Shown here: in pieces, positions 7,667 through 27,537 of the stretch | Layout of the letters: every line of letters starts with the position of its first letter | Position numbering within the stretch: position 1 is the stretch's first letter | DNA from: an uncultured bacterium | GTDB taxonomy: Bacteria > Bacteroidota > Bacteroidia > Chitinophagales > CAIODY01 | DNA: 64,000 nt | Assembly: GCA_903857255.1 (NCBI GenBank) | Contig: CAIODY010000043.1 | Coordinates: 18,334-82,333, forward strand | Reading direction: 5' to 3' | Notes under the pieces: model-generated | What the model was told of the DNA's origin: nothing | The model's database searches: none | What the model saw: only the letters and a program-made list of their open reading frames with translations | Made by a program: the position numbers and the translations under genes

Positions 7667-7674
7667 TACCTTTG
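7667..7674 (+). promoter_or_regulatory. Bacteroidota-type -7 box (TACCTTTG, matches TAnnTTTG) for the SRP RNA
   Basis: The motif sits 6 nt upstream of the predicted 5' end of the SRP RNA helix. TTTG motifs lie further upstream at 7651-7660. Confidence 0.6.
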
Positions 7675-7679
7675 CCCTC

Positions 7680-7772
7680 GGCAAGTCCTATACGACCAGC
7701 TCCTGCTCACTCCCCCAGGGTCGGAAGGCAGCAAGGGTAGGCGGTTGAGCGGTGCGATATAGGTAACTTGCC
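7680..7772 (+). ncRNA. ffs: Signal recognition particle RNA (small bacterial 4.5S type)
   Basis: The 5' ggcaagtcctata pairs with the 3' tataggtaacttgcc. The apical domain-IV-like core is cagggtcGGAAggcagcaagggtag, with a GGAA tetraloop and AGCA motif. A T-run follows at 7774-7779. Confidence 0.75.
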
Positions 7773-7911
7773 ATTTTTTATTTAAAATTGTTTCTTTATG
7801 GCAGCAATAATTTATTAACATTGTTGCACAACTAATTTTCACGAAACAGTTTTCTCTCCTTTTCTTTGCGATTCAAATTTCAATTCATCAACTAATTAAA
7901 TTTTCAATAAA

Positions 7912-12436: not shown

Positions 12437-15400
12437 TTATTTCATCAAATACATTTTTCCAAATCCACTTTTAAAGTATTGGTCAGCCGAAGTATTATAG
12501 TGGTCAATCTTGCTACCATTAAGGTTTGTAACCACTCGATATAAATAAAGTCCGTTAGCTAATCGCTTGCCATATTCATCTGTTCCGTCCCAAGCGTATT
12601 GTGTGATATTTTTTCCGATGTGCATGCCTTCGCCTAATTCGGTAACATTTATTTCTTTCACTACTTTGCCTGTGATGGTGAAAATTTGAATTTTGAAATA
12701 CGATGGAATATCACTTCCTGTGAGTGTAAATACAAAATGTGTTTGCGATGTAAATGGATTTGGGTAGTTAAGCACATTGCTAATCATCGGCTTGTTGATG
12801 ATAGTAAAACCAATGTTGTAATCAATAATGCCTGATGCATTATTGCTGCGGTCTTGCCCTTGTACACGAAGATTGTAAACACCATCACGTGATAGCACAG
12901 GGTCTATTTCAATGGTGGCTGAATTGTTAGTTGCAGCATTGGTTGCTGGTGTAAATTTTATCGGAACTGTTAATGGTGAAAGTGTTGAATAACCACTTAA
13001 TCCAGGATATTGCATGGATAGTTTGAAAAGATTTAACGAATCTAAAGTGAGATATTTATTTTCATCCTTCAATCGAATGATGATGTGTGGCTTCGCACTA
13101 ACAATGTCGCCATTCATAATGTGCATGCCATCAAAAGTTACATCCAGCAAGGGATTGATGTTATCAGAAAAAGTAACCACTTGCATTTTTGCTGTGTTGT
13201 TGAAGTGATACAATTCATTTTTGTGTTTGTGTGGGTCGGTTGAAATTGTTGTAAATGCATTCGCATCAATCAGCAATGAATTTTTCCCGGGATATAAATT
13301 GGATGGTAAAGAAATATTGAGATTTGCTGTGTCCCAAGCATTGATGGGATGAATTTTAGCATAAAAAACATCTTTCAAGTTGTTACTTTTTACCATCGAA
13401 TACTTCACATAAAATGTATCCATTTTTATTGGGCTCACATTTCGTAATGCATATTTCAATGTAATTTTTTCGCCTTGATAAATGGTATCAGCATGAAATG
13501 CGAAAAACGAATTTTTATCTAAAGCAATTTCGGGTAATGGCTGATAGTTGATTCGCCAATAATTTAATTGTGCTGGCGTTCGAACCAATGTATCTTTTGT
13601 TGTCATCCGCATTTTTAAATATGGATATTGTGTTGCACTCACAAAACCAATATTGTAATCGAACATTTGATTCGCATGATTTTCATACAGTACTGTTTCA
13701 TTTCCAGTAGTATCAACGCCAATTAATTGAATGGAAGTTGAATCGGCGGAATTAATTTCTTGTGGATTGTAACTCCAATGTATGCTTGTCCAAGAAGCTA
13801 CCGGACCTATTTGTGTTGATGTTAATGAACCTAAATACCAATTGCCACTAAAATAAAATGTGGTGTCAATCAAGCCACCATTTGTATTTGAATGCACTTC
13901 GTGCGTTTGATAACCGTGTGCTCCTTTTTTTCCGAACAATACATAAGTGCGGCTGCCAGTCATGGTATCAGCTATTGTGGTATGAAATAAATTATGCAAA
14001 GTGTTGTGCAATGAAGTGCCTAAAGTTTGTGGCGACCATTGGTTGATGCTATACAACAAAGCATAAGTTCCGTTTGGAATAAAATTGTTTAAAAAATTAT
14101 CAAGGTAAGTTCGTTGTATGGAATCAGTTGCTGCTTGCGACATGGCTGGAATATTATAAGGCCATGTGGTTGATGTTAAACGACCTTTTGTGAAATATTG
14201 AAAGGTGGGCAACTGCACACCACCACAAGTATAATCACCAGCTTGCGGATTGATGCCATAGCCATTTTGAACAGGTTGACCAAAAATTGAATCGAATAAA
14301 ACAATATTAAATCCGCCAAACGGACCAGCAACATTTGAGCTATTATAAGATGCGTAAGGAATGCATGAACCACCATTATTTAATTTCTGATAATCTAAAA
14401 ATGGTGCAACTTGATAGCTTGAACCATCACCAAAATCAGTAACCTTCACACTTCGAATATTATTGGCGAATTTGAATTTTCTTGAAACAGAATCAATTTG
14501 CAGTGTTAAAAACACATCTTTCTTAAACTCAAAATAATGCGATTGGTCCCAGCCTGGAGAACTATTATAAATGTAAGTGAATGATGAATTGTGCCAGGTG
14601 AGTTGATGATTGCCATACAAAGTATCAACTGCTGTGCGCCAATAATACACACGATTATTAACCCAATGCGTTGAAGGTTTCCAACTGATAACGCCACCAA
14701 TTTGATTGATAGTGGTGGATTGAAATTGTGAACTGTTAAATTTTTCGGTGGTATCGAATTGAATAAAATATTTTCGATTAGCTGCCAAAGGGTCAACTGT
14801 GCTGGCTTTCAAGGTGAACTTAGTAGTATCGGTTGCGGCAACAATACTAAATTGTGCAGGATAAACTGGTAATATATCTAATGATGAAATGTTGAAATCA
14901 ATCGTAGTTTGATTGTTGTTTTCACAAATTTCACTCACTTCATTGTTGGCATCTACAATGATTTGAATGCGGTTTGTACCCAATGCTTTATCAGGATTTA
15001 GATTGACGATGACATCAAAATTTTGTTTATAAGCAGGTGCTTTTATTCGCATCGTTGTAATTAACGTTGGTGTTGTGCCTACTGTTAAATCAGCTTTTGG
15101 AAAATATCGCAACACCATAATATTGATGGAATCTTTTTTGTTCAGCCCTAAATTTTCAACCGAAAACAAAACATGAAAAGTATTGCCCGATTCAAAATTG
15201 ATGGTAGATGGATTCAGCGAAACCATTGATTGTTCAATATCATAATCAGGTTTTGAATGTGGGTTTAATTTTATGGCAGGGTCACCATCTAATAACATTT
15301 GTTCGCCAGTTGCCACCATATCAATAGATGCATAAGTTGCATTGCGAAGCATGGTATCAACACCTATACGAATGCATTCGCCCAAGGTGTTACCATAATG

Positions 15401-20525: not shown

Positions 20526-20795
20526 ATGAGCAGCGCACCTGAAAATATTGAAATAAATTTTACGCCCCGTGAGCAACAGTTAGTTGTTTTATTGTGGGAA
20601 GGTTATTCTTACAAAATGATTGCCGAGCAATTGCATATTGCCATAGGTACTGTAAAAACCCAAATTAATTTATTGCACGTTAAAACCCAAACCAACAACA
20701 CTGGTGGAGTATTGCGCTTTGCATTTTTGCATGGTTTTAACTTTGATATTATTCAGCAACAGGTTTTTTATCATGGGCAATTGGTTGTGTGTTGA
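20526..20795 (+). CDS. Stand-alone LuxR/GerE-type helix-turn-helix protein (89 aa, no receiver or ligand domain)
   Basis: FTPREQQLVVLLWEGYSYKMIAEQLHIAIGTVKTQINLLHVK matches the LuxR C-terminal HTH pattern (LTxRExxVLxLxxxGxSxKxIAxxLxISxxTVKxH). Confidence 0.75.
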   Translation: MSSAPENIEINFTPREQQLVVLLWEGYSYKMIAEQLHIAIGTVKTQINLLHVKTQTNNTGGVLRFAFLHGFNFDIIQQQVFYHGQLVVC

Positions 20796-21005
20796 AGCCA
20801 CCATCACACATTTTATTCTTCCTTTTTTGGGGCTTGCAACAAAAAGAAAAAAGTTGAGCATAGTTTTAAAAGTTCAATACACCATCAGCTAGCTTCTCTT
20901 CTACGTGGTTTTCATTATACCTTTTTGTGTATTGTAAAAAACTTTTATTGCCTACAATTTTACAGCAACAATTCATCCAGCAATTGCAAAAGTTCTTTTA
21001 CAATT

Positions 21006-21237
21006 AGTTTCTTTTTTTTTGATGTTCCGAATAAATCAGTCGGAATTCCGAATGAAAAAGTTGAAGCTCCGAATGAAATGTTCGGAGCTCCAAACAAAAT
21101 GTTTGGAACAATAAATAAACCATTCGGAGTTCAGCAAGAAAAATTTTAAGTCCCGAATAAAATGTTCGGAATCCCAAACGAAAAGGTTTAAGCTCCAAAC
21201 AAACTATTCGGAACATCAACCAACAAAAAAAGAAACT
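21006..21237. repeat. Array of nine tandem 21-nt units (21025..21213), each a partial or perfect palindrome around TCCGAA...TTCGGA, bracketed by terminal inverted repeats
   Basis: The best units are ctccgaa-tgaaatg-ttcggag (21067-21087) and tccaaaca-aaa-tgtttgga (21089-21107). The terminal inverted repeats are agtttcttttttttt+gatgttccgaat (21006-21032) against attcggaacatc (21206-21217) and aaaaaaagaaact (21225-21237). A 42-nt super-period is visible. Confidence 0.85.
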
Positions 21238-21338
21238 AAAAAAATAAAGTACAAGGCAGCGAAAAGCTTAATACTAGCCCATTTTGCTTGCTCTATCAAC
21301 AGTAAGAATATTTTTTTAACAATAAAAAACAAATAGTC

Positions 21339-22016
21339 ATGAAAAACAAAGATGTATTTCCGTCAGACGAACCAGGTTTTGATTCGTTTCAGGACAACTT
21401 GGTAAAACAAGCCACCGCCAACAAAGTGGCTTGGGTAATTGATGCTGCACAATTAGGTTTATTAACGCCCTTGCAAGCGAAGTGGGCGCTTAATTGGGCA
21501 ATTTGTAAAGTGAAAACCAATGCTACCACTGCGCAGCGGAAGGCAAAAAATCAAGCCAAAGCGGCTTATAAAAAGCAGTTGCGAATTTTTATTAAAGGGC
21601 AAATTCAGGGCAATGTAAACATGACTGATGACGAACGGATATTATGTGGGGTTACACCACATAAAACTACTCGTACACCAGCAGTAAAACCTGATACTAC
21701 ACCCACCGTAACGGTAGAAACTACTAATGGTGAAGTAGCTCATATTTTTTGCAAACAACAACAGGGCAATGATGGTAGCAGCCTTAGAGCCAAACCCGAT
21801 GGGATAAAAAAAGTGAAAGTGGTGTATATAGTCAGTGCCACTGCACCTGCCAGCCCTGCGGCTTGCATCAATACGGTGTATAGTGGCAAAACAAAAATCA
21901 CTTTGCAATTTGATGTGGCTGATGCAGGTAAAAAATTCTATGGCTTTGCTTGCTGGGTAAATAGCAAAGATGAACAAGGACCGTGGAGTGTTTTGTTTAG
22001 CGGTAGTGTTTCGTAA
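21339..22016 (+). CDS. Hypothetical protein (helical N-terminal half, beta-rich C-terminal half)
   Basis: A 225-aa ORF with no signal peptide and no motif I recognise. It lies directly downstream of the palindromic array. Confidence 0.55.
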   Translation: MKNKDVFPSDEPGFDSFQDNLVKQATANKVAWVIDAAQLGLLTPLQAKWALNWAICKVKTNATTAQRKAKNQAKAAYKKQLRIFIKGQIQGNVNMTDDERILCGVTPHKTTRTPAVKPDTTPTVTVETTNGEVAHIFCKQQQGNDGSSLRAKPDGIKKVKVVYIVSATAPASPAACINTVYSGKTKITLQFDVADAGKKFYGFACWVNSKDEQGPWSVLFSGSVS

Positions 22017-22043
22017 TCAATCGTTAGTGGATAGTCTTTTTTG

Positions 22044-22077
22044 AAAAGCCATTGCAAGCAATTGTGGTGGCTTTTTT
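22044..22077. terminator. Hairpin terminator between convergent genes
   Basis: aaaagcca...tggctttt forms an 8-bp stem followed by TT, 28 nt after the 21339..22016 stop. It is also usable from the minus strand after the methyltransferase gene. Confidence 0.55.
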
Positions 22078-22103: not shown

Positions 22104-23702
22104 TTATTTTACTTTAATCCTGCTATGATATAATTTCTCACGAATTGAAAAGATATTTTCAATAGTTGGCAAGTCAATCTTTCTATCAATTGTTTTCAAA
22201 ATCTTAGCATCATTCATGCGACATACATCTGCAATGGATGATTTGTTTTCAAAAATATTTGTATAAGTTTTGAACTGAGCATTATTTATAGTTGTGTAAG
22301 GAATTGGTAGGATTTTAAATTCATTTGGGGTTAATTCTAATACACCACCACCATAAAAACGACCTTCTAATTCGGCAAAGGATAAGGTCAAAGAATTGTA
22401 GAAAGAATAAATCAAACTTTCAATATCCAAACCCTTATTCATTTTAATAGCATAAGCACTATCTGTAACCAATACTTTTGCAGAGTTTTTAATGAGCTTT
22501 GGATATTCATTACAACGTTTAAAAAAGAAAGCTTCAGATGGAGTGCCAACATTAGGAACTTGATACCAATTATCCCTTATTGATGTTTTATAGCGTTCGT
22601 GAATTTTTTTCTCTTCTCCTATCTTGAAGTAATTAGCTAATTCAGCTTTTTGTTTTTTGCTTAAGTCAACATTGAAATCTAAGAGATAGGTTGGCTTTTT
22701 TGTTCTAATTAATTTATTAAAATCATGCCCATTGATTTCAACACTTCCATTTACAAAGAATCCCTTTTGAATGATTTTTTTTGAATAGTCTTCTAATCTA
22801 AACTCTTCCATTGTTTCCTTATCAACTATAAAATAATCATTCGCACCTGTAACAATTCCTGCTTTTGAATAACAGTAATCATCCACTGTTTTTAATTGAT
22901 TCTTTAAGTTTTCAAGCAGTTGTCTTTCATCGCTTGTTAAATGACTATGCGTCCACTTTCCTTGCTTAATACTTATATTTTGGGTCAGCTTAAAATTTCG
23001 TTTTATAAGGTCATTGGTATCAACAATGTTGCAATTATAAACGCCTTTCTTTTTTGATTTTCTTTCTCCAATTAACAACAGAGTATCTTGCCCCTTGCAA
23101 TCTTCAAAAAGCAATTCATTAAAAGTAAAAATTTCAATACGCTCAAATTCAGCTAACAATAATGCTTGCAACTCTGCTGCAAATTTTACTTGTAATAATT
23201 CGGCAGGTAATACCATTGCCAAAATACCATCAGCATTTGTGAATTTAATACATCGCACTAAAAAGGCTGTCCAGATGTTTTTTATTTTATTTTTAGATAG
23301 TGATGGAAATACCTGATGAACCTCTTCGCATAATTTTATTTGCTTTTCAGTCAAAAACTTTTTTCTAAAATAAGGGGGGTTGCCAACTACTAAATCAAAT
23401 TCCGTGTCATTGTTTTTTTGAAATTCTAAAAAGTCAGCATTAATAGCATTTAGCGATTTAACAGAAGTAATTGCTCTCACTTTTTCCAATTCTGCTTTTT
23501 CCCTTTCCACAGCAACTGCTAAGTGGATTTTGTTTGATAAAGTATTATGATTGTAAATTGATTCAATAAAACTACCAGCACCAGCACTTGGCTCTAATAC
23601 ACTAACAGAAGTATTATCCTTCATTTTGTCAGAAAGATAATCCACCAAAAAATCGGCAATGATTTTTGGAGTATAAAATGAGCCGATATTTTTTTTATTC
23701 AT
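22104..23702 (-). CDS. Gamma-class N6-adenine DNA methyltransferase (M.TaqI/Eco57I-like, with TaqI_C-like target-recognition half)
   Basis: Motifs are FYTP (aa 11-14 of the ORF-track translation), LEPSAGAGSF (38-47), GNPPY (109-113) and GIVTGANDYF in the C-terminal half. ATG at 23702 overlaps the HNH stop by 8 nt (ATGAATAA). Confidence 0.85.
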   Translation of the reverse strand: MNKKNIGSFYTPKIIADFLVDYLSDKMKDNTSVSVLEPSAGAGSFIESIYNHNTLSNKIHLAVAVEREKAELEKVRAITSVKSLNAINADFLEFQKNNDTEFDLVVGNPPYFRKKFLTEKQIKLCEEVHQVFPSLSKNKIKNIWTAFLVRCIKFTNADGILAMVLPAELLQVKFAAELQALLLAEFERIEIFTFNELLFEDCKGQDTLLLIGERKSKKKGVYNCNIVDTNDLIKRNFKLTQNISIKQGKWTHSHLTSDERQLLENLKNQLKTVDDYCYSKAGIVTGANDYFIVDKETMEEFRLEDYSKKIIQKGFFVNGSVEINGHDFNKLIRTKKPTYLLDFNVDLSKKQKAELANYFKIGEEKKIHERYKTSIRDNWYQVPNVGTPSEAFFFKRCNEYPKLIKNSAKVLVTDSAYAIKMNKGLDIESLIYSFYNSLTLSFAELEGRFYGGGVLELTPNEFKILPIPYTTINNAQFKTYTNIFENKSSIADVCRMNDAKILKTIDRKIDLPTIENIFSIREKLYHSRIKVK

Positions 23703-24300
23703 TGCCAATTGCTTTAATTACCCTAATCATTTCTCTAGAATTAAAAAGTAATTTGGTTATTTTAACATGCAGTTCTTTTGGAATGAAGTCAACTTTTTCA
23801 TTAAATAATTTTTCAATTTCATTTAAAAGCTCTTCTACTCTTTCACTTCTCCAAAATATTCCGTGCCTTTTCAAATTGAGTTTCATCGCCCTCACCATAT
23901 ATGCCCCAATTTCTGAATTAGGAATTATGTTACCATTTATGTCTCTTTTCAAATGTTTTACGTAATCTTCATTTCTTGGATTAACAAAGCCTTCATTGTT
24001 TTTAATAGTAATTTTTTCGTTTTCCGAAGGCCACTTTGCACGTTTAGAATTATTGCAAAAGAAACATGAGTAAACAAGATTTGAGTACTCTGTTTTAGAA
24101 ATTAAGTTAAGATGTTTTTGAGGTACAAAATGGTCTATTTGATAAAATCGCCACCCACCTGTCCAGTAGTCTGAATCATTACAATAGCCACACCTGTTCC
24201 TGAAATCAGCTTTTAATTCTTGTTTATATTCAGTGTGTTTGTTTACTTTTTTAGGGTTTAGTATAAGCTTAACAGGATGTTCCTTACGAAATTCAATCAT
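23695..24300 (-). CDS. HNH endonuclease (zinc-ribbon CxxC...DH...N...CxxCN type)
   Basis: Motifs are CGYC (37-40), IDH (55-57), N74 and CFFCNNSK (79-86). The 201-aa protein has a helical C-terminal half. Confidence 0.85.
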   Translation of the reverse strand: MIEFRKEHPVKLILNPKKVNKHTEYKQELKADFRNRCGYCNDSDYWTGGWRFYQIDHFVPQKHLNLISKTEYSNLVYSCFFCNNSKRAKWPSENEKITIKNNEGFVNPRNEDYVKHLKRDINGNIIPNSEIGAYMVRAMKLNLKRHGIFWRSERVEELLNEIEKLFNEKVDFIPKELHVKITKLLFNSREMIRVIKAIGNE

Positions 24301-24982
24301 TTTTCAATTTTTTTAATTCGTTAAGAATGCCCTCAGTTTCTGAAACTAGCTTTGTTAAATTATCTATATCGGCAGGGCTTTTCCAATCTTTAGGAAGTTT
24401 TGATTTTTTCGAAATAGAGCTTTCTAATTTTGTGTCTAAATCAACAAGTCTTGCTAAATCCTTATCATTTAATTTTTCTCCCTTACTTTGTCTATCTGTT
24501 AATTCAAAAAAAGCATCTTCATTACTTTTTAGGTTTTCTTTATACCTATCAATTAGTTGAGAGATATTATTTATAGTTTTTATTGCTTGGTTAACTTCAT
24601 CTTTATTATCTGAATTAAAATTGATAATTGCCTTACTTATTATTTTAAATGGGTCAGCCTTCATCAATTTATAATCATCGGCATTATTAGTGATAATAAA
24701 AGTTGGAAATTCTTCAAAATGTTCTAGCAAATGCATTTGAAAGACATCTCCTTGTTGTGAAAATGATGAATTGTTTTCCATTAATTTATAATCGAATGCT
24801 ACACAATCAATTTCATTCGATATAATAAACTGAAAAAGTTCACCTTCATCTGAAATGCTAGTTAATCCGAACACTTCAAAGGTCTTATCTGTTAATCCTT
24901 GTTGTTTAATATTGTCTAAAAAAGTTTCAAACCCTTCAATTTGGTCAGAATTTTCATCGACAACCAATATTTTGTAGTTCAT
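24293..24982 (-). CDS. Receiver (CheY-like) domain protein with a C-terminal coiled-coil and no recognisable output domain
   Basis: The receiver pattern is KILVVDE (acidic pair D13/E14), CVAFDYKL (acceptor-like D68), FIITN (T102) and K117/K121. The last roughly 100 aa are K/E/L/D-rich and heptad-like. Start is ATG at 24982, with an alternative GTG at 24994. Confidence 0.7.
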   Translation of the reverse strand: MNYKILVVDENSDQIEGFETFLDNIKQQGLTDKTFEVFGLTSISDEGELFQFIISNEIDCVAFDYKLMENNSSFSQQGDVFQMHLLEHFEEFPTFIITNNADDYKLMKADPFKIISKAIINFNSDNKDEVNQAIKTINNISQLIDRYKENLKSNEDAFFELTDRQSKGEKLNDKDLARLVDLDTKLESSISKKSKLPKDWKSPADIDNLTKLVSETEGILNELKKLKND

Positions 24983-24986
24983 AATA

Positions 24987-27290
24987 TTATTCACAATGTT
25001 TTAAGTAAATTTTAATTTGAAATCCAATCTCAGGAGTTAAGAGTTTGGCACTTCCTTTATTGTAGTCTACAGAAGATTTTAACAACCACATTCCTAATCC
25101 GTTTCCAACTTCTTTACCTGTATTATCTCTTTTTGTGGTAACAAATGCTTTAAATATTTCCTCCTTCTTTTTTATATCTTTACTAATACCTGGTCCTGAA
25201 TCACGATAATCAAACTCAACATCGCCATCAACTTTTTTTAAATGAATTTTGATGATTCTATTGCCTTTAAAACCATTCCTTTGAAATGCTTCAATAGAAT
25301 TAGTAAGAAGATTGTCGAAAATCGTATCAAGGTCTAACTCTATAATTTTGAGGGCGTAATCTTTTGCTTTTTCTGTCTCATAAGTAATATTTAATCCAAC
25401 ACCTCTATCGCTCAACTTCTTTTTCCAATTATTGTTAAACTCATTAAAATAGTCTCTTAAGTTGATTTTTTTAGACCTCCGCCTATCCTTTTTGGTAAGC
25501 ATTATAGAAAAATCAATCCACTGTTTTATTTTATCATCTAATTCTTTTAGTTGGGATATAAGATGATAAGGGTTGTTTATGTTTTTAAGATTTTTGACTT
25601 TACTTTCAGGCAACAATGGAAGTAAGTTATTCCTTAAATTAGTAGCCCTACTATTTAGCTTATTTTTTATAGAATGAAACTCATGAGAAAAGCTTGCTAT
25701 CAAAATTCCAGCACTTGCCATTGCTCTTGAAAGCACCAACTCATCCTCTCTTTGCTCAATTTTTATTTTTTGAGATTTTACAGCACTTTTAAGTGTTTTA
25801 TTTTTTCTTTTAGTGGTTTCAGTATTTTCATCCTCATTGTCTTCTTCAACAATGTTTAATGCTTCTTCTTCAGCGGCATCGTCTTTTTCAGCATCTTTAT
25901 TGTACAATTGAAGATTATTGAAAATGGTACTACGGTCTTTCTCCAATTTTGATATTATACCCTCAAGCAAATTTTTGAATAACTCAAAAGTTTTGTTTTC
26001 TATTAAACCTTCTCGACCTGATTTATCAACTAAAAACAATTCAGATGTTCTCGAAAAGGATATTGTACCAGCTACCTGATTTGGCTTAATCATAAAATCA
26101 AGCCTTGATGCACCAGCTGGGTTTTTACCTTGACGTTCGCCCAATAGCAACCAGTCATAAGAGGCTGTTTCAGTTTCGCCATATGGTCTAACTCTAAAAT
26201 TATCACGATACAGCTTTATTCCACTGAATTTTTTTGCCCACTTTCTTCTTATTGCAGTATCAAATGATTTATTCTTGAAGATACTGTCATTAGAGCCGAG
26301 TTTAAAATAATATAATGTAAACGTAAAATCCCCAATTGTATCACTTAAATTATCCTTTTCTAATTCACGAAACCCACCAATCAATTCATAAAAATTGGTG
26401 TTAATTGTAAAGCGTTCTTTTTTGAAAGTTGTTTTGTCGTAGGGAAATTCTCTCATTTCTTCCCTTTGAAAAAAAGCATCATCTATTTGATTAAAATCAA
26501 ATTCATTCCTGTGAAATACGATTTTTAAATCCCGAGTACCATTTTTTTTATACGTCGCTACAATTTTGTAATCATAGTCATTGTATGAATCATTTTGAAT
26601 TTTACCATATTTTCCTGTTACTCTTTCATTGAAAAAGAATATATCGAATTTATTTTGTCCATCAGGAGGAGTTAAAACTTGTAAACTATGTGCTATAAAG
26701 TCGCATAATTCATCATCCCATTCATCTCTTGTAAATTCAATTTTTAAAAGAGTACCGCTTTTATTGCTTCTATTGCCAATCAGTTTTAGTATACTTTGGT
26801 TATTTGTCTCTTTCTTCAATTGCTCAAAGACATTCAACTTGCCAATTTCATCTAGTTTTGCAAAAACTTGATTTATCGAAGTTGATTTTTTTTCAAAGTC
26901 ATTCCAATTGGCAAACCATTTACATCCTATTCCGTTTGAATCTTTAGTTGTATACATAGTACACTTTTGCCCAAGTCTATCCAATGCAAATCTTCCAATC
27001 CCTTTAGCACCAGCTTTTACCCTACCTCTTTTACTTTTGAAATCTGTTTCCTTGTTATCAGTTCCAATATTCATCCAATTATCTTTTATGTCCTTTGAAG
27101 ACATACCAACACCATTATCGTAAATGATAATTGTGCGTTTGATTGGATTAACAATAACTAACGAGAAGTCAGCATCAGCATCATAGCAATTTTTTACAAG
27201 TTCGATTATTGCACCATCGCTATGAGCGACATTTTCACGACCAATAAGCCTTGCTGCCCTTGCCGAAACTGTAAATGGAATTTGTGCCAT
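24987..27290 (-). CDS. Dual-GHKL protein: N-terminal MORC/HSP90-like ATPase module fused to a C-terminal histidine kinase (H-box plus HATPase)
   Basis: The N-terminal motifs are ELVKNCYDADA (30-40), DNGVGM (58-63) and GAKGIG (94-99). The H-box-like motif is ASFSHEFHSIKN (532-543). The C-terminal motifs are DNLLTNSIEA (659-668), DSGPGI (697-702) and GNGLGM (729-734). There is no signal peptide and no transmembrane segment. Confidence 0.8.
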   Translation of the reverse strand: MAQIPFTVSARAARLIGRENVAHSDGAIIELVKNCYDADADFSLVIVNPIKRTIIIYDNGVGMSSKDIKDNWMNIGTDNKETDFKSKRGRVKAGAKGIGRFALDRLGQKCTMYTTKDSNGIGCKWFANWNDFEKKSTSINQVFAKLDEIGKLNVFEQLKKETNNQSILKLIGNRSNKSGTLLKIEFTRDEWDDELCDFIAHSLQVLTPPDGQNKFDIFFFNERVTGKYGKIQNDSYNDYDYKIVATYKKNGTRDLKIVFHRNEFDFNQIDDAFFQREEMREFPYDKTTFKKERFTINTNFYELIGGFRELEKDNLSDTIGDFTFTLYYFKLGSNDSIFKNKSFDTAIRRKWAKKFSGIKLYRDNFRVRPYGETETASYDWLLLGERQGKNPAGASRLDFMIKPNQVAGTISFSRTSELFLVDKSGREGLIENKTFELFKNLLEGIISKLEKDRSTIFNNLQLYNKDAEKDDAAEEEALNIVEEDNEDENTETTKRKNKTLKSAVKSQKIKIEQREDELVLSRAMASAGILIASFSHEFHSIKNKLNSRATNLRNNLLPLLPESKVKNLKNINNPYHLISQLKELDDKIKQWIDFSIMLTKKDRRRSKKINLRDYFNEFNNNWKKKLSDRGVGLNITYETEKAKDYALKIIELDLDTIFDNLLTNSIEAFQRNGFKGNRIIKIHLKKVDGDVEFDYRDSGPGISKDIKKKEEIFKAFVTTKRDNTGKEVGNGLGMWLLKSSVDYNKGSAKLLTPEIGFQIKIYLKHCE

Positions 27291-27306
27291 ATAATTTTAT
27301 TCGTTA

Positions 27307-27335
27307 CAAATTTATGATTTTATTTGGCAAATGTA
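27307..27335 (-). promoter_or_regulatory. Candidate promoter of the four-gene operon (two TAnnTTTG -7-like boxes)
   Basis: On the minus strand, TAAATTTG is at 27314..27307, 16 nt upstream of the ATG. TACATTTG is at 27335..27328. Confidence 0.45.
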
Positions 27336-27537
27336 TTTTCAAAAAAATGGAATAAGGAACACATAGAATTGTTGATTGTTTTCCGTCAACCATGATGTTC
27401 TGCCGAGTTGCAAAATCGGCACAGATAATAGACGATTTGAAGCCGTAGAAGCGAACCTGCACTAGTTGTCGCCAAGCTAAAGCATATTTTGATGTGGTAT
27501 CAATCACAAAACCTTTTTATTCCACCAAGCAAAGTAT

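Follow-up and report, generated by a model that had tools for sequence, protein, structure and literature searches.

A 64,000-nucleotide stretch of DNA from an uncultured bacterium of the Bacteroidota (Chitinophagales, CAIODY01; contig CAIODY010000043.1, positions 18,334 to 82,333), here called the window, carries on its minus strand a four-gene operon that is related to Ambrosia, an anti-phage system of Pseudomonas. Judged by sequence, the operon combines the AbrB, AbrC and AbrD core of Ambrosia with a different, relocated methylase and has no regulator, and it is a divergent relative of the Ambrosia family. We consider it probable that the operon is a divergent Ambrosia-family system directed against phages and mobile elements, which was acquired horizontally by its Bacteroidota host, is encoded in one operon and works by the mechanism proposed below. 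The cassette as such very probably has a defence function, as judged from the analysis as a whole. The four open reading frames run head to tail in positions 22104-27290:

24987-27290, minus strand: gene 1, kinase, 767 amino acids
24293-24982, minus strand: gene 2, receiver, 229 amino acids counted from the ATG
23695-24300, minus strand: gene 3, HNH nuclease, 201 amino acids
22104-23702, minus strand: gene 4, methylase, 532 amino acids counted from the ATG

Base-by-base reading of the junctions agreed with the initial annotation of this DNA in every detail. The TAA of the kinase gene (24989-24987) is separated by 4 nucleotides from the ATG of gene 2 at 24982, and a GTG is present at 24994. Genes 2 and 3 overlap by the 8 nucleotides ATGATTGA (24300-24293), and genes 3 and 4 by the 8 nucleotides ATGAATAA (23702-23695). 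The ATG at 24982 was taken as the start of gene 2, backed by homologues and public gene calls, and the residues of the receiver are numbered from it; adding four gives the earlier, GTG-based numbering. The low G+C content that had been estimated from small samples was also borne out, with 0.306 for the operon against 0.352 for the window, which is the fourth lowest among 589 sliding 5.2-kb positions and about 3.4 standard deviations under the mean.

Relationship to Ambrosia

Ambrosia consists of the XRE regulator AbrR, the N6 methylase AbrA, the HATPase kinase AbrB, the receiver AbrC and the HNH protein AbrD. It protects Pseudomonas against phage, and a point mutation in each domain abolishes the defence, the N-terminal ATPase of the kinase, the aspartate of the receiver, the histidine of the HNH protein and the methylase each being required (bioRxiv 10.1101/2025.09.30.679545). 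In the same work, reporters replacing abrA or abrD were barely on without phage and strongly on during infection, phage propagated on the Ambrosia methylase alone was still sensitive, cells expressing Ambrosia survived infection with no evident toxicity, and the system was found in Gammaproteobacteria only. The initial annotation had known of no described system combining a kinase, a receiver, an HNH nuclease and a methylase. This claim did not hold, since Ambrosia combines all four parts and homologues of three of its proteins are encoded in the window; a kinase/receiver pair in restriction-modification contexts had moreover been predicted in 2021 (PMC8011034). As to whether the locus belongs to a named system, PADLOC in its 2023 release assigned it to none, whereas the newer literature on Ambrosia does.

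The proteins of the window were compared with the Ambrosia sequences of the preprint (Table S1) and of a complete P. aeruginosa locus (L085), both by BLASTP and with independent profiles built without any Pseudomonas sequence. The kinase aligned with AbrB in two collinear segments, with 35% identity over 215 amino acids (1e-32) and 28% over 471 amino acids (2e-24), through the H-box and the catalytic domain, and its independent profile matched P. aeruginosa AbrB at 1.9e-114, again in two segments that covered most of the length. The receiver matched AbrC at 1e-4 by BLASTP, with D64 placed on D60, and at 2.9e-21 over the full length with the independent profile. For the HNH protein and AbrD the corresponding values were 9e-18, with H57 on H60, and 4.2e-30, and AbrD carries the same PtuB/TIGR02646 annotation as gene 3. 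Similarity between the methylase and AbrA was confined to motifs I and IV in BLASTP and to about 200 residues of the catalytic domain in the independent profile (1.1e-18). The residues essential for Ambrosia have counterparts in all four proteins, namely N34 for N40 of AbrB, D64 for D60 of AbrC, H57 for H60 of AbrD and T11 for T72 of AbrA.

Both systems thus share the same four functional parts, with a homologous kinase of about 750 amino acids, a helical-tailed receiver of about 210 and a PtuB-like HNH protein of about 210, and the genes overlap or abut in both. They differ in the methylase, which is encoded by the first gene in Ambrosia and by the last gene in the window; AbrA has 447 amino acids and the window methylase 532, and their recognition halves are dissimilar, with M_Eco57I_C found in the window protein only. 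AbrR stands at the head of the Ambrosia cluster, whereas the operon of the window holds no regulator gene and no XRE-like open reading frame was found within 1.5 kb upstream of its kinase gene. A winged helix-turn-helix was reported for AbrC and was not seen in the model of the window receiver; by profile, the C-terminal half of AbrC proved homologous to the helical region of that receiver. The hosts are also different, being Bacteroidota for the window and Gammaproteobacteria for Ambrosia.

Conservation and mobility of the cassette

As a conserved cassette, the four genes are tightly packed, point in the same direction and move horizontally together. For a survey of gene neighbourhoods, the best 80 of 498 genomic kinase matches (33-52% identity) were taken together with two loci found by exact look-up, their open reading frames were searched with profiles of the four window proteins, and duplicates and truncated contigs were dropped, which left 74 informative loci. 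The kinase, receiver, HNH and methylase genes followed each other in the same order on one strand in 70 of these, so the neighbours whose conservation the initial annotation had proposed to examine were retained. The HNH gene was present in all 74 loci, the receiver gene in 73 and an adjacent N6 methylase gene in 71. Gene junctions across the loci mostly ranged from -14 to +12 nucleotides, with the receiver and HNH genes overlapping or abutting in nearly all of them, and a dedicated search found no fusion between any of the four parts.

Among the exceptions, locus L059 has an AbrA-like N6 methylase of 467 amino acids on the opposite strand (13549-14952). Loci L040 (10001-13852) and L079 (10001-13574) hold intact kinase-receiver-HNH trios without a linked DNA methylase, followed by genes for a caspase-like protein of 1215 amino acids and an argininosuccinate synthase. 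Locus L077 (9953-14690) holds a cassette without a receiver gene.

The cassette was found in Bacteroidota, Campylobacterota, SUP05, Methylobacter, Paenibacillus, Nitrospinota, Desulfobacterales, Verrucomicrobia, Acidobacteria, Sericytochromatia, Paceibacteria, Leptospira, Methanosarcina and Methanolobus, so that its hosts also include candidate-phylum bacteria, Bacillota and methanogenic archaea. It is carried by a Bacteroides finegoldii plasmid, where it adjoins integrase and toxin-antitoxin genes, and by a conjugative plasmid of Bacillus; it adjoins Tn7-like transposition genes in Flavobacterium and lies near KwaB, HsdR and RhuM genes in Methanosarcina. Ambrosia itself is flanked by integrases in Pseudomonas. 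A more distant relative of the kinase, with 28% identity over the N-terminal 58% only, was seen in 22 records of conjugative plasmids (about 50-60 kb) of Campylobacter jejuni and Campylobacter coli. A phage-borne module was considered and rejected, with only two weak partial matches in phages.

In about 24 of the 82 loci (about 28%) the kinase gene is directly preceded, on its own strand, by a small gene for a Cro/XRE-type helix-turn-helix protein of 64-85 amino acids (Pfam HTH_26/HTH_3; among these loci are L006, L007, L015, L023, L028, L030, L037, L039, L049, L057, L061, L062, L066, L068, L070, L073, L075, L076, L078, L080, L081 and L083), and it is likely the counterpart of AbrR. In two loci of Flavobacteriia the methylase gene is directly followed by a gene for a 906-amino-acid NACHT/P-loop protein with TPR repeats, resembling STAND NTPases (L003, 15185-17905; L080, 10776-13499), which may be a neighbouring defence gene.

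The kinase and the receiver

Gene 1 encodes a soluble protein in which a MORC-like ATPase is joined to a complete histidine-kinase core. Pfam found HATPase_c_3 at residues 25-139 (1e-17) and HATPase_c at residues 651-764 (4e-16), and NCBIfam histidine-kinase models covered the protein from about residue 473 to the C-terminus. The AlphaFold2 model (mean predicted local distance difference test score, pLDDT, 79.5) consists of a GHKL domain (about 1-210), an alpha/beta middle domain (about 215-430), two long helices (433-526), a hairpin for dimerization and histidine phosphotransfer (DHp, 535-600) containing H536-E537, and a catalytic domain (607-765). Foldseek matched the N-terminal 510 or so residues to MORC2/MORC3, Hsp90/TRAP1 and the ATPase of Topo IV, and the C-terminal 260 or so residues to ZraS, HK853 and CpxA. 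The conserved residues were E30, N34, D37, D58, G60, G62 and G94-G99 in the N-terminal half and H536, E537, N660, N664, D697, G699, G701 and G729-G733 in the kinase half, all kept in distant homologues. Both Bergerat motif sets and F534-x-H536-E537, in which the H-box reads S-H-E-F, were invariant among 60 homologues. The motifs quoted in the initial annotation were all present at the residues given there and proved invariant or nearly so in distant homologues.

Gene 2 itself had no match in Pfam, NCBIfam or PADLOC, and a sequence search of the PDB gave nothing meaningful. It was assigned as a receiver because of its orthologues, conserved residues and predicted fold, Pfam being blind to the protein itself. 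Response_reg was matched by the orthologues of Methanosarcina and Flavobacterium and by 37 of 81 relatives overall. Residues D9/E10, D64, T98 and K117 were kept across phyla in the alignment; of the two lysines proposed earlier, K117 and K121, the conserved one is the latter, which becomes K117 when counted from the ATG since the earlier numbers were four too high. In the AlphaFold2 model (pLDDT 82.4) a (beta-alpha)5 core of about residues 1-120 is followed by a C-terminal half made up of helices (127-166, 173-187 and 203-227), with no strands after residue 116. The top Foldseek matches were the receivers of PorX, EutV, PhyR, ComE, EvgA and Spo0A. The family comprised 567 clusters at E<=1e-10 (clusters of 50% identity), and nearly all of the listed members had 200-230 amino acids and matched over the full length.

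Sequence and predicted folds agree in giving the pair the hallmarks of a two-component system, with the DHp histidine and the N, G1 and G2 boxes in the putative kinase and the acidic pair, aspartate, threonine and lysine in the putative receiver. The domain assignments made earlier, including the receiver and the H-box, were upheld by the conserved residues, the folds and the Foldseek matches. Among the profile families that had been named for searching, HATPase_c_3, HATPase_c, HNH and N6_Mtase/Eco57I were found in the window proteins, whereas Response_reg was found in relatives of gene 2 and not in gene 2.

The HNH nuclease and the methylase

Gene 3 is by its sequence a predicted PtuB-type HNH nuclease resembling AbrD. 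It matched the Pfam HNH family at 9e-07 and TIGR02646 weakly, and the PtuB model of PADLOC at 2.3e-17 over nearly its full length. Its motifs are C37-x2-C40, D56-H57, N74 and C79-x2-C82-N83, followed by a helical C-terminal tail, and C37, D56, H57, N74, C79 and N83 were kept in 74 of 74 orthologues. C40 and C82 were found to covary, with 34 orthologues having Cys/Cys and 38 having Thr/Val at these positions, and C37 and C79 were invariant; about half of the family thus appears, from these residues, to have lost two zinc ligands together. In a profile search of the PDB, gene 3 matched the PtuB proteins of Septu and of type I-A retrons at a weak E value of about 1e-3, and some larger HNH-domain proteins scored similarly.

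Kinship with PtuB raises the question of abortive infection, in which the phosphorelay would free a nuclease of the PtuB kind to cleave a tRNA of the host, for example tRNA-Tyr, and not DNA, so that translation would stop, the methylase serving in sensing or in some other role. Cleavage of tRNA-Tyr has been reported for Septu and Retron-Eco7 (PMC13096335, PMC12673091). PtuB models cover almost the whole HNH protein, and the relatives of similar size with a solved structure are PtuB proteins, from Septu and from type I-A retrons. Such a mode of action would also account for the failure of methylation to protect phage in Ambrosia. However, Ambrosia cells survive infection without evident toxicity, unlike in typical abortive infection, the similarity to solved PtuB proteins is weak, and the conservation of a DNA methylase is difficult to account for if DNA plays no part. 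We regard abortive infection as quite unlikely.

Gene 4 encodes, as predicted from its sequence, an N6-adenine DNA methyltransferase of the gamma class, which ends in a target-recognition domain of the Eco57I type. Pfam found M_Eco57I_C (2.3e-35) together with Eco57I and N6_Mtase, and the type II methylase model of PADLOC (MTase_II, PDLC03267) matched over the full length at 8e-137. The motifs FYTP, LEPSAGAGSF and NPPY are present; both prolines of NPPY were kept in 72 of 72 methylase orthologues and its tyrosine in 70. The gamma class and the motifs proposed in the initial annotation were thereby sustained, but the C-terminal half, described there as TaqI-like, matched M_Eco57I_C and not TaqI_C. 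Across the related loci the methylase module has been exchanged between lineages, in its recognition domain, its position and even its strand, while the nuclease stays orthologous.

The full-length match to a type II model, the linked N6 methylase in 71 of 74 loci and the resemblance of the N-terminal GHKL domain of the kinase to BbrUII/HgiDII restriction enzymes speak for a classical type II restriction-modification system, in which the methylase protects the host motif, the HNH protein is the cognate endonuclease and the kinase and receiver tune timing or expression only; paraMORC ATPases do occur in restriction-modification contexts (PMC8011034, citing Iyer, Abhiman and Aravind 2008). We consider such a system improbable. 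The HNH protein of 201 amino acids has no domain for reading the target of the methylase, and the proteins closest to it among those of similar architecture are PtuB effectors and not restriction enzymes. The methylase is swapped between lineages while the nuclease is orthologous, two trios have no linked DNA methylase, methylase-modified phage was still restricted in Ambrosia, and the BbrUII model gave the kinase 49.7 bits against a cut-off of 550.

For the same reasons the role of methylation as self-protection, which had been suggested with the initial annotation, became doubtful. Self-protection is unlikely because the nuclease is small and without a recognition domain, because the methylase is exchanged between lineages and trios without it exist, and because the Ambrosia methylase did not shield phage. 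The tRNA-Tyr cleavage reported for PtuB nucleases points the same way, as the target of the nuclease may not be DNA.

Proposed mechanism

In the mechanism that we favour, gene 1 would be a soluble sensor whose N-terminal MORC/Hsp90-like ATPase clamp serves as the input; the MORC-like module is taken as the sensor because the protein has no other input domain, neither a membrane nor a small-ligand sensor domain. An infection-linked cue would make the clamp drive the autophosphorylation of H536 by the C-terminal kinase domain, and the phosphoryl group would be passed to D64 of the stand-alone receiver. The phosphorylated receiver, with its helical, coiled-coil-like tail, would license the HNH nuclease by protein-protein contact and not by DNA binding, and the nuclease would then destroy the nucleic acid of the invader or an essential RNA of the host. 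The methylase would be an obligatory partner, which might provide the sensor with a mark of self DNA or be required in another way, and it is probably no simple shield against a sequence-specific restriction enzyme. The residues predicted to serve in ATP binding by both GHKL domains, in His-Asp phosphotransfer, in HNH catalysis and in methyl transfer are all conserved. Defence in this host, the direction in which the signal travels, a post-translational output and the target of the nuclease are inferred.

The output is the step at which the transcriptional model put forward for Ambrosia departs from this mechanism. There the receiver would be a transcription factor that turns on silent methylase and nuclease genes, and the nuclease may cut DNA bearing the system's own methyl mark. 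The infection-induced abrA and abrD reporters and the winged helix-turn-helix assigned to AbrC argue for it (bioRxiv 10.1101/2025.09.30.679545), and so does the XRE regulator gene that abuts the kinase gene in some of the related loci. In the window, however, there is no XRE gene and only one upstream intergenic region, so that production of the sensor and the receiver would depend on the very promoter that they induce. A post-translational output is preferred because the receiver tail is purely helical where the model is confident, because no DNA-binding Pfam family was found in the 81 receiver relatives and no Pfam family of any kind in AbrC, and because most loci, the window included, lack a regulator and have just one upstream region. 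The overlapping or abutting receiver and HNH genes of nearly all loci also favour a post-translational output, and the homology of the C-terminal half of AbrC to the helical region speaks against the transcriptional model as well. The transcriptional model appears unlikely for the window, and was kept as a rival because the last helices of the receiver were modelled at low confidence and the Ambrosia expression data are real.

Several points weigh against the mechanism that we favour. The authors of Ambrosia prefer transcriptional control and assign the winged helix-turn-helix to AbrC, and residues 193-229 of the window receiver, in which confidence is low, could hold a small DNA-binding element. 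No fusion of the receiver or of the kinase with the HNH protein was found that would prove a physical partnership. Identity to the Ambrosia proteins is low, at 23-30%, and the linkage counts cover the best 80 of 498 kinase matches, more distant relatives lying outside the sample. The support in this lineage comes from homology and gene linkage, and it is from Ambrosia that defence is known experimentally. The operon of the window lies among housekeeping genes (nuoH, tyrS) and not in a defence island; the context that the initial annotation had proposed to examine was seen at some relatives, beside defence and mobile-element genes, but not at the window locus. Finally, contigs with identical flanking proteins (nuoH and a 225-amino-acid open reading frame) yielded no cassette-free site, as each of them contains the cassette or ends inside it, and insertion is thus not demonstrated.

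A position between housekeeping genes would also suit a function outside immunity. The operon could be a selfish addiction module, addiction being one way for mobile cassettes to persist, or an epigenetic signalling device whose phosphorelay governs methylation or nicking of the repair type in the host's own regulation. But the homologous Ambrosia protects against phage with each domain required, and related loci recur beside defence, toxin-antitoxin and mobile-element genes, which makes a non-immune function very improbable.

Within the favoured mechanism, a more specific form can be put forward tentatively, as possible rather than probable. The MORC-like clamp would read a state of the DNA, for example the absence of the N6-methyladenine mark of the partner methylase, and would trigger phosphorylation of the receiver, whose coiled-coil tail would switch the PtuB-type nuclease on without transcription; the four-gene form without a regulator would then be the ancestral or minimal form of Ambrosia. 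If this were true, the operon would represent a two-component pathway with a chromatin-type ATPase as input and an enzyme complex as output.

Comparison with other known systems

The kinase and receiver resemble the HEF_HK/Response_reg_2 pair predicted in 2021, in which a soluble protein with HATPase_c_3, HEF_HK and HATPase_c is accompanied by a small receiver-like partner; the two are linked in 91.6% of cases and, in a purely computational study, were found in restriction-modification neighbourhoods mainly with C5 methylases, Vsr and HNH_2 (PMC8011034). The likeness to this pair (PF19191/PF19192) lies in the architecture, the H-E-F motif of the DHp domain, the soluble nature, the adjoining receiver-like gene, the restriction-modification context and the affinity to paraMORC. 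Unlike the window genes, the HEF_HK pair is not tied to a fixed cassette with a PtuB-like HNH protein and an N6 methylase (PMC8011034). PF19191 and PF19192 had no match in the window proteins even at E<=10, and matched 0 of 60 kinases and 0 of 81 receivers at E<=0.01. The kinase and receiver of the window belong to a sister lineage outside the HEF_HK and Response_reg_2 models.

Septu and type I-A retrons share with the window a PtuB-type HNH protein, matched over nearly its full length, and an ATPase partner that presumably holds the nuclease back or turns it on. The ATPase of Septu is PtuA, of the ABC/SMC type, whereas the window has a GHKL/MORC-like module on a histidine kinase, together with a receiver and a methylase. 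Membership in Septu was rejected, since the operon holds no ABC ATPase and the PtuA matches of PADLOC fall on the HNH protein only.

Detocs and type 1F Shedu, the latter with a receiver-fused nuclease beside a kinase (10.1101/2023.08.10.552793), likewise use a phosphorelay to gate an immune effector. The window differs from them in having one receiver, an unfused effector that is of the HNH type and not PNP or DUF4263, and an added methylase. Membership in Detocs was rejected on the single receiver gene with its helical tail, with neither a second, buffering receiver nor a fused effector. For genes 1 and 2, PADLOC gave a generic GHKL match only, in its 2023 release, in which the presence of Detocs models was unchecked. 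The DefensePredictor study (PMC13092281) names a predicted HATPase+REC system, which may correspond to this cassette.

The paraMORC/GHKL restriction systems, such as BbrUII/HgiDII and the GHKL-Shedu protein VcSduA (PMC12137116), likewise have an N-terminal GHKL domain followed by a MORC/Hsp90-type middle domain and are associated with a nuclease and a methylase, but the GHKL domain of the window is fused to a histidine-kinase core and not to a nuclease. BbrUII/HgiDII was rejected, the match of NF050001 covering residues 28-120 only. MADS (mad1-mad8) was rejected as well, with a weak match to the methylase mad2 (1.6e-12) and to no other mad model.

Operon boundaries and neighbouring sequences

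The gap between the kinase gene and the divergent nuoH is about 200-275 nucleotides. Two further features were assigned at the ends of the operon:

27291-27345, minus strand: putative promoter/leader upstream of the kinase gene, holding TAAATTTG
22043-22076, no strand: G+C-poor hairpin with a 15-bp stem, lying between the stop codons of the methylase gene (22104) and of a convergent open reading frame of 225 amino acids (22016)

TAAATTTG was read at 27314-27307, 16 nucleotides before the kinase ATG, and matches TAnnTTTG, which we take to be the -7 consensus of Bacteroidota. A scan for sigma-70-type promoters found sites no more numerous than in shuffled sequence, and 27291-27345 is only tentatively assigned as the promoter/leader of the operon. 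The hairpin was found as a terminator-like site, with no run of T after it on the strand of the operon, and it probably serves as a terminator common to the operon and the convergent open reading frame, marking the 3' end of the operon.

No tRNA gene lies at the boundaries of the island and no convincing direct repeats flank it. An AT-rich inverted repeat of 17 nucleotides, 88% complementary, at both ends of the operon (22037-22053 and 27330-27346) is probably due to chance. Several independent metagenome assemblies of the source organism, including L087-L096, end inside the kinase or the methylase gene, and these breaks may stem from differences among strains or from low coverage of the locus. 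The convergent 225-amino-acid open reading frame (21339-22016, plus strand) had no Pfam match and was always present alongside the cassette in contigs of the source organism.

Between that reading frame and a gene for a LuxR/sigma70_r4 helix-turn-helix protein (20526-20795), the gap holds an array of about 11 tandem 21-nucleotide units with alternating CCGAAT and ATTCGG half-sites (21004-21239). It contains the palindrome GGAATTCC at 21042-21049 and is bounded by a perfect 15-nucleotide inverted repeat (21004-21018 and 21225-21239); it may serve to bind a regulator or be a small repeat element. Rfam further identified a Flavo-1 RNA at 71-210 and a small signal recognition particle RNA of the Bacteroidales type at 7672-7777 of the window, which, together with genes of the type IX secretion system kind in the flanks, fit a Bacteroidota host.

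Implications

The locus is a rearranged, regulator-less variant of a family that has already been named and tested, and not an undescribed kind of system. Current detection, represented by PADLOC 2023 and the Pfam models HEF_HK and Response_reg_2, misses this lineage. The kinase-receiver-HNH core reaches far beyond Gammaproteobacteria, into Bacteroidota, plasmids of Bacillota, Campylobacterota, candidate-phylum bacteria and methanogens. Its usual form, without a regulator gene and with an interchangeable methylase, constrains the mechanism, in that the output probably proceeds by protein-protein contact and the methylase is probably no simple antidote. The input to this signalling would be a MORC-like ATPase related to the chromatin regulators of eukaryotes.

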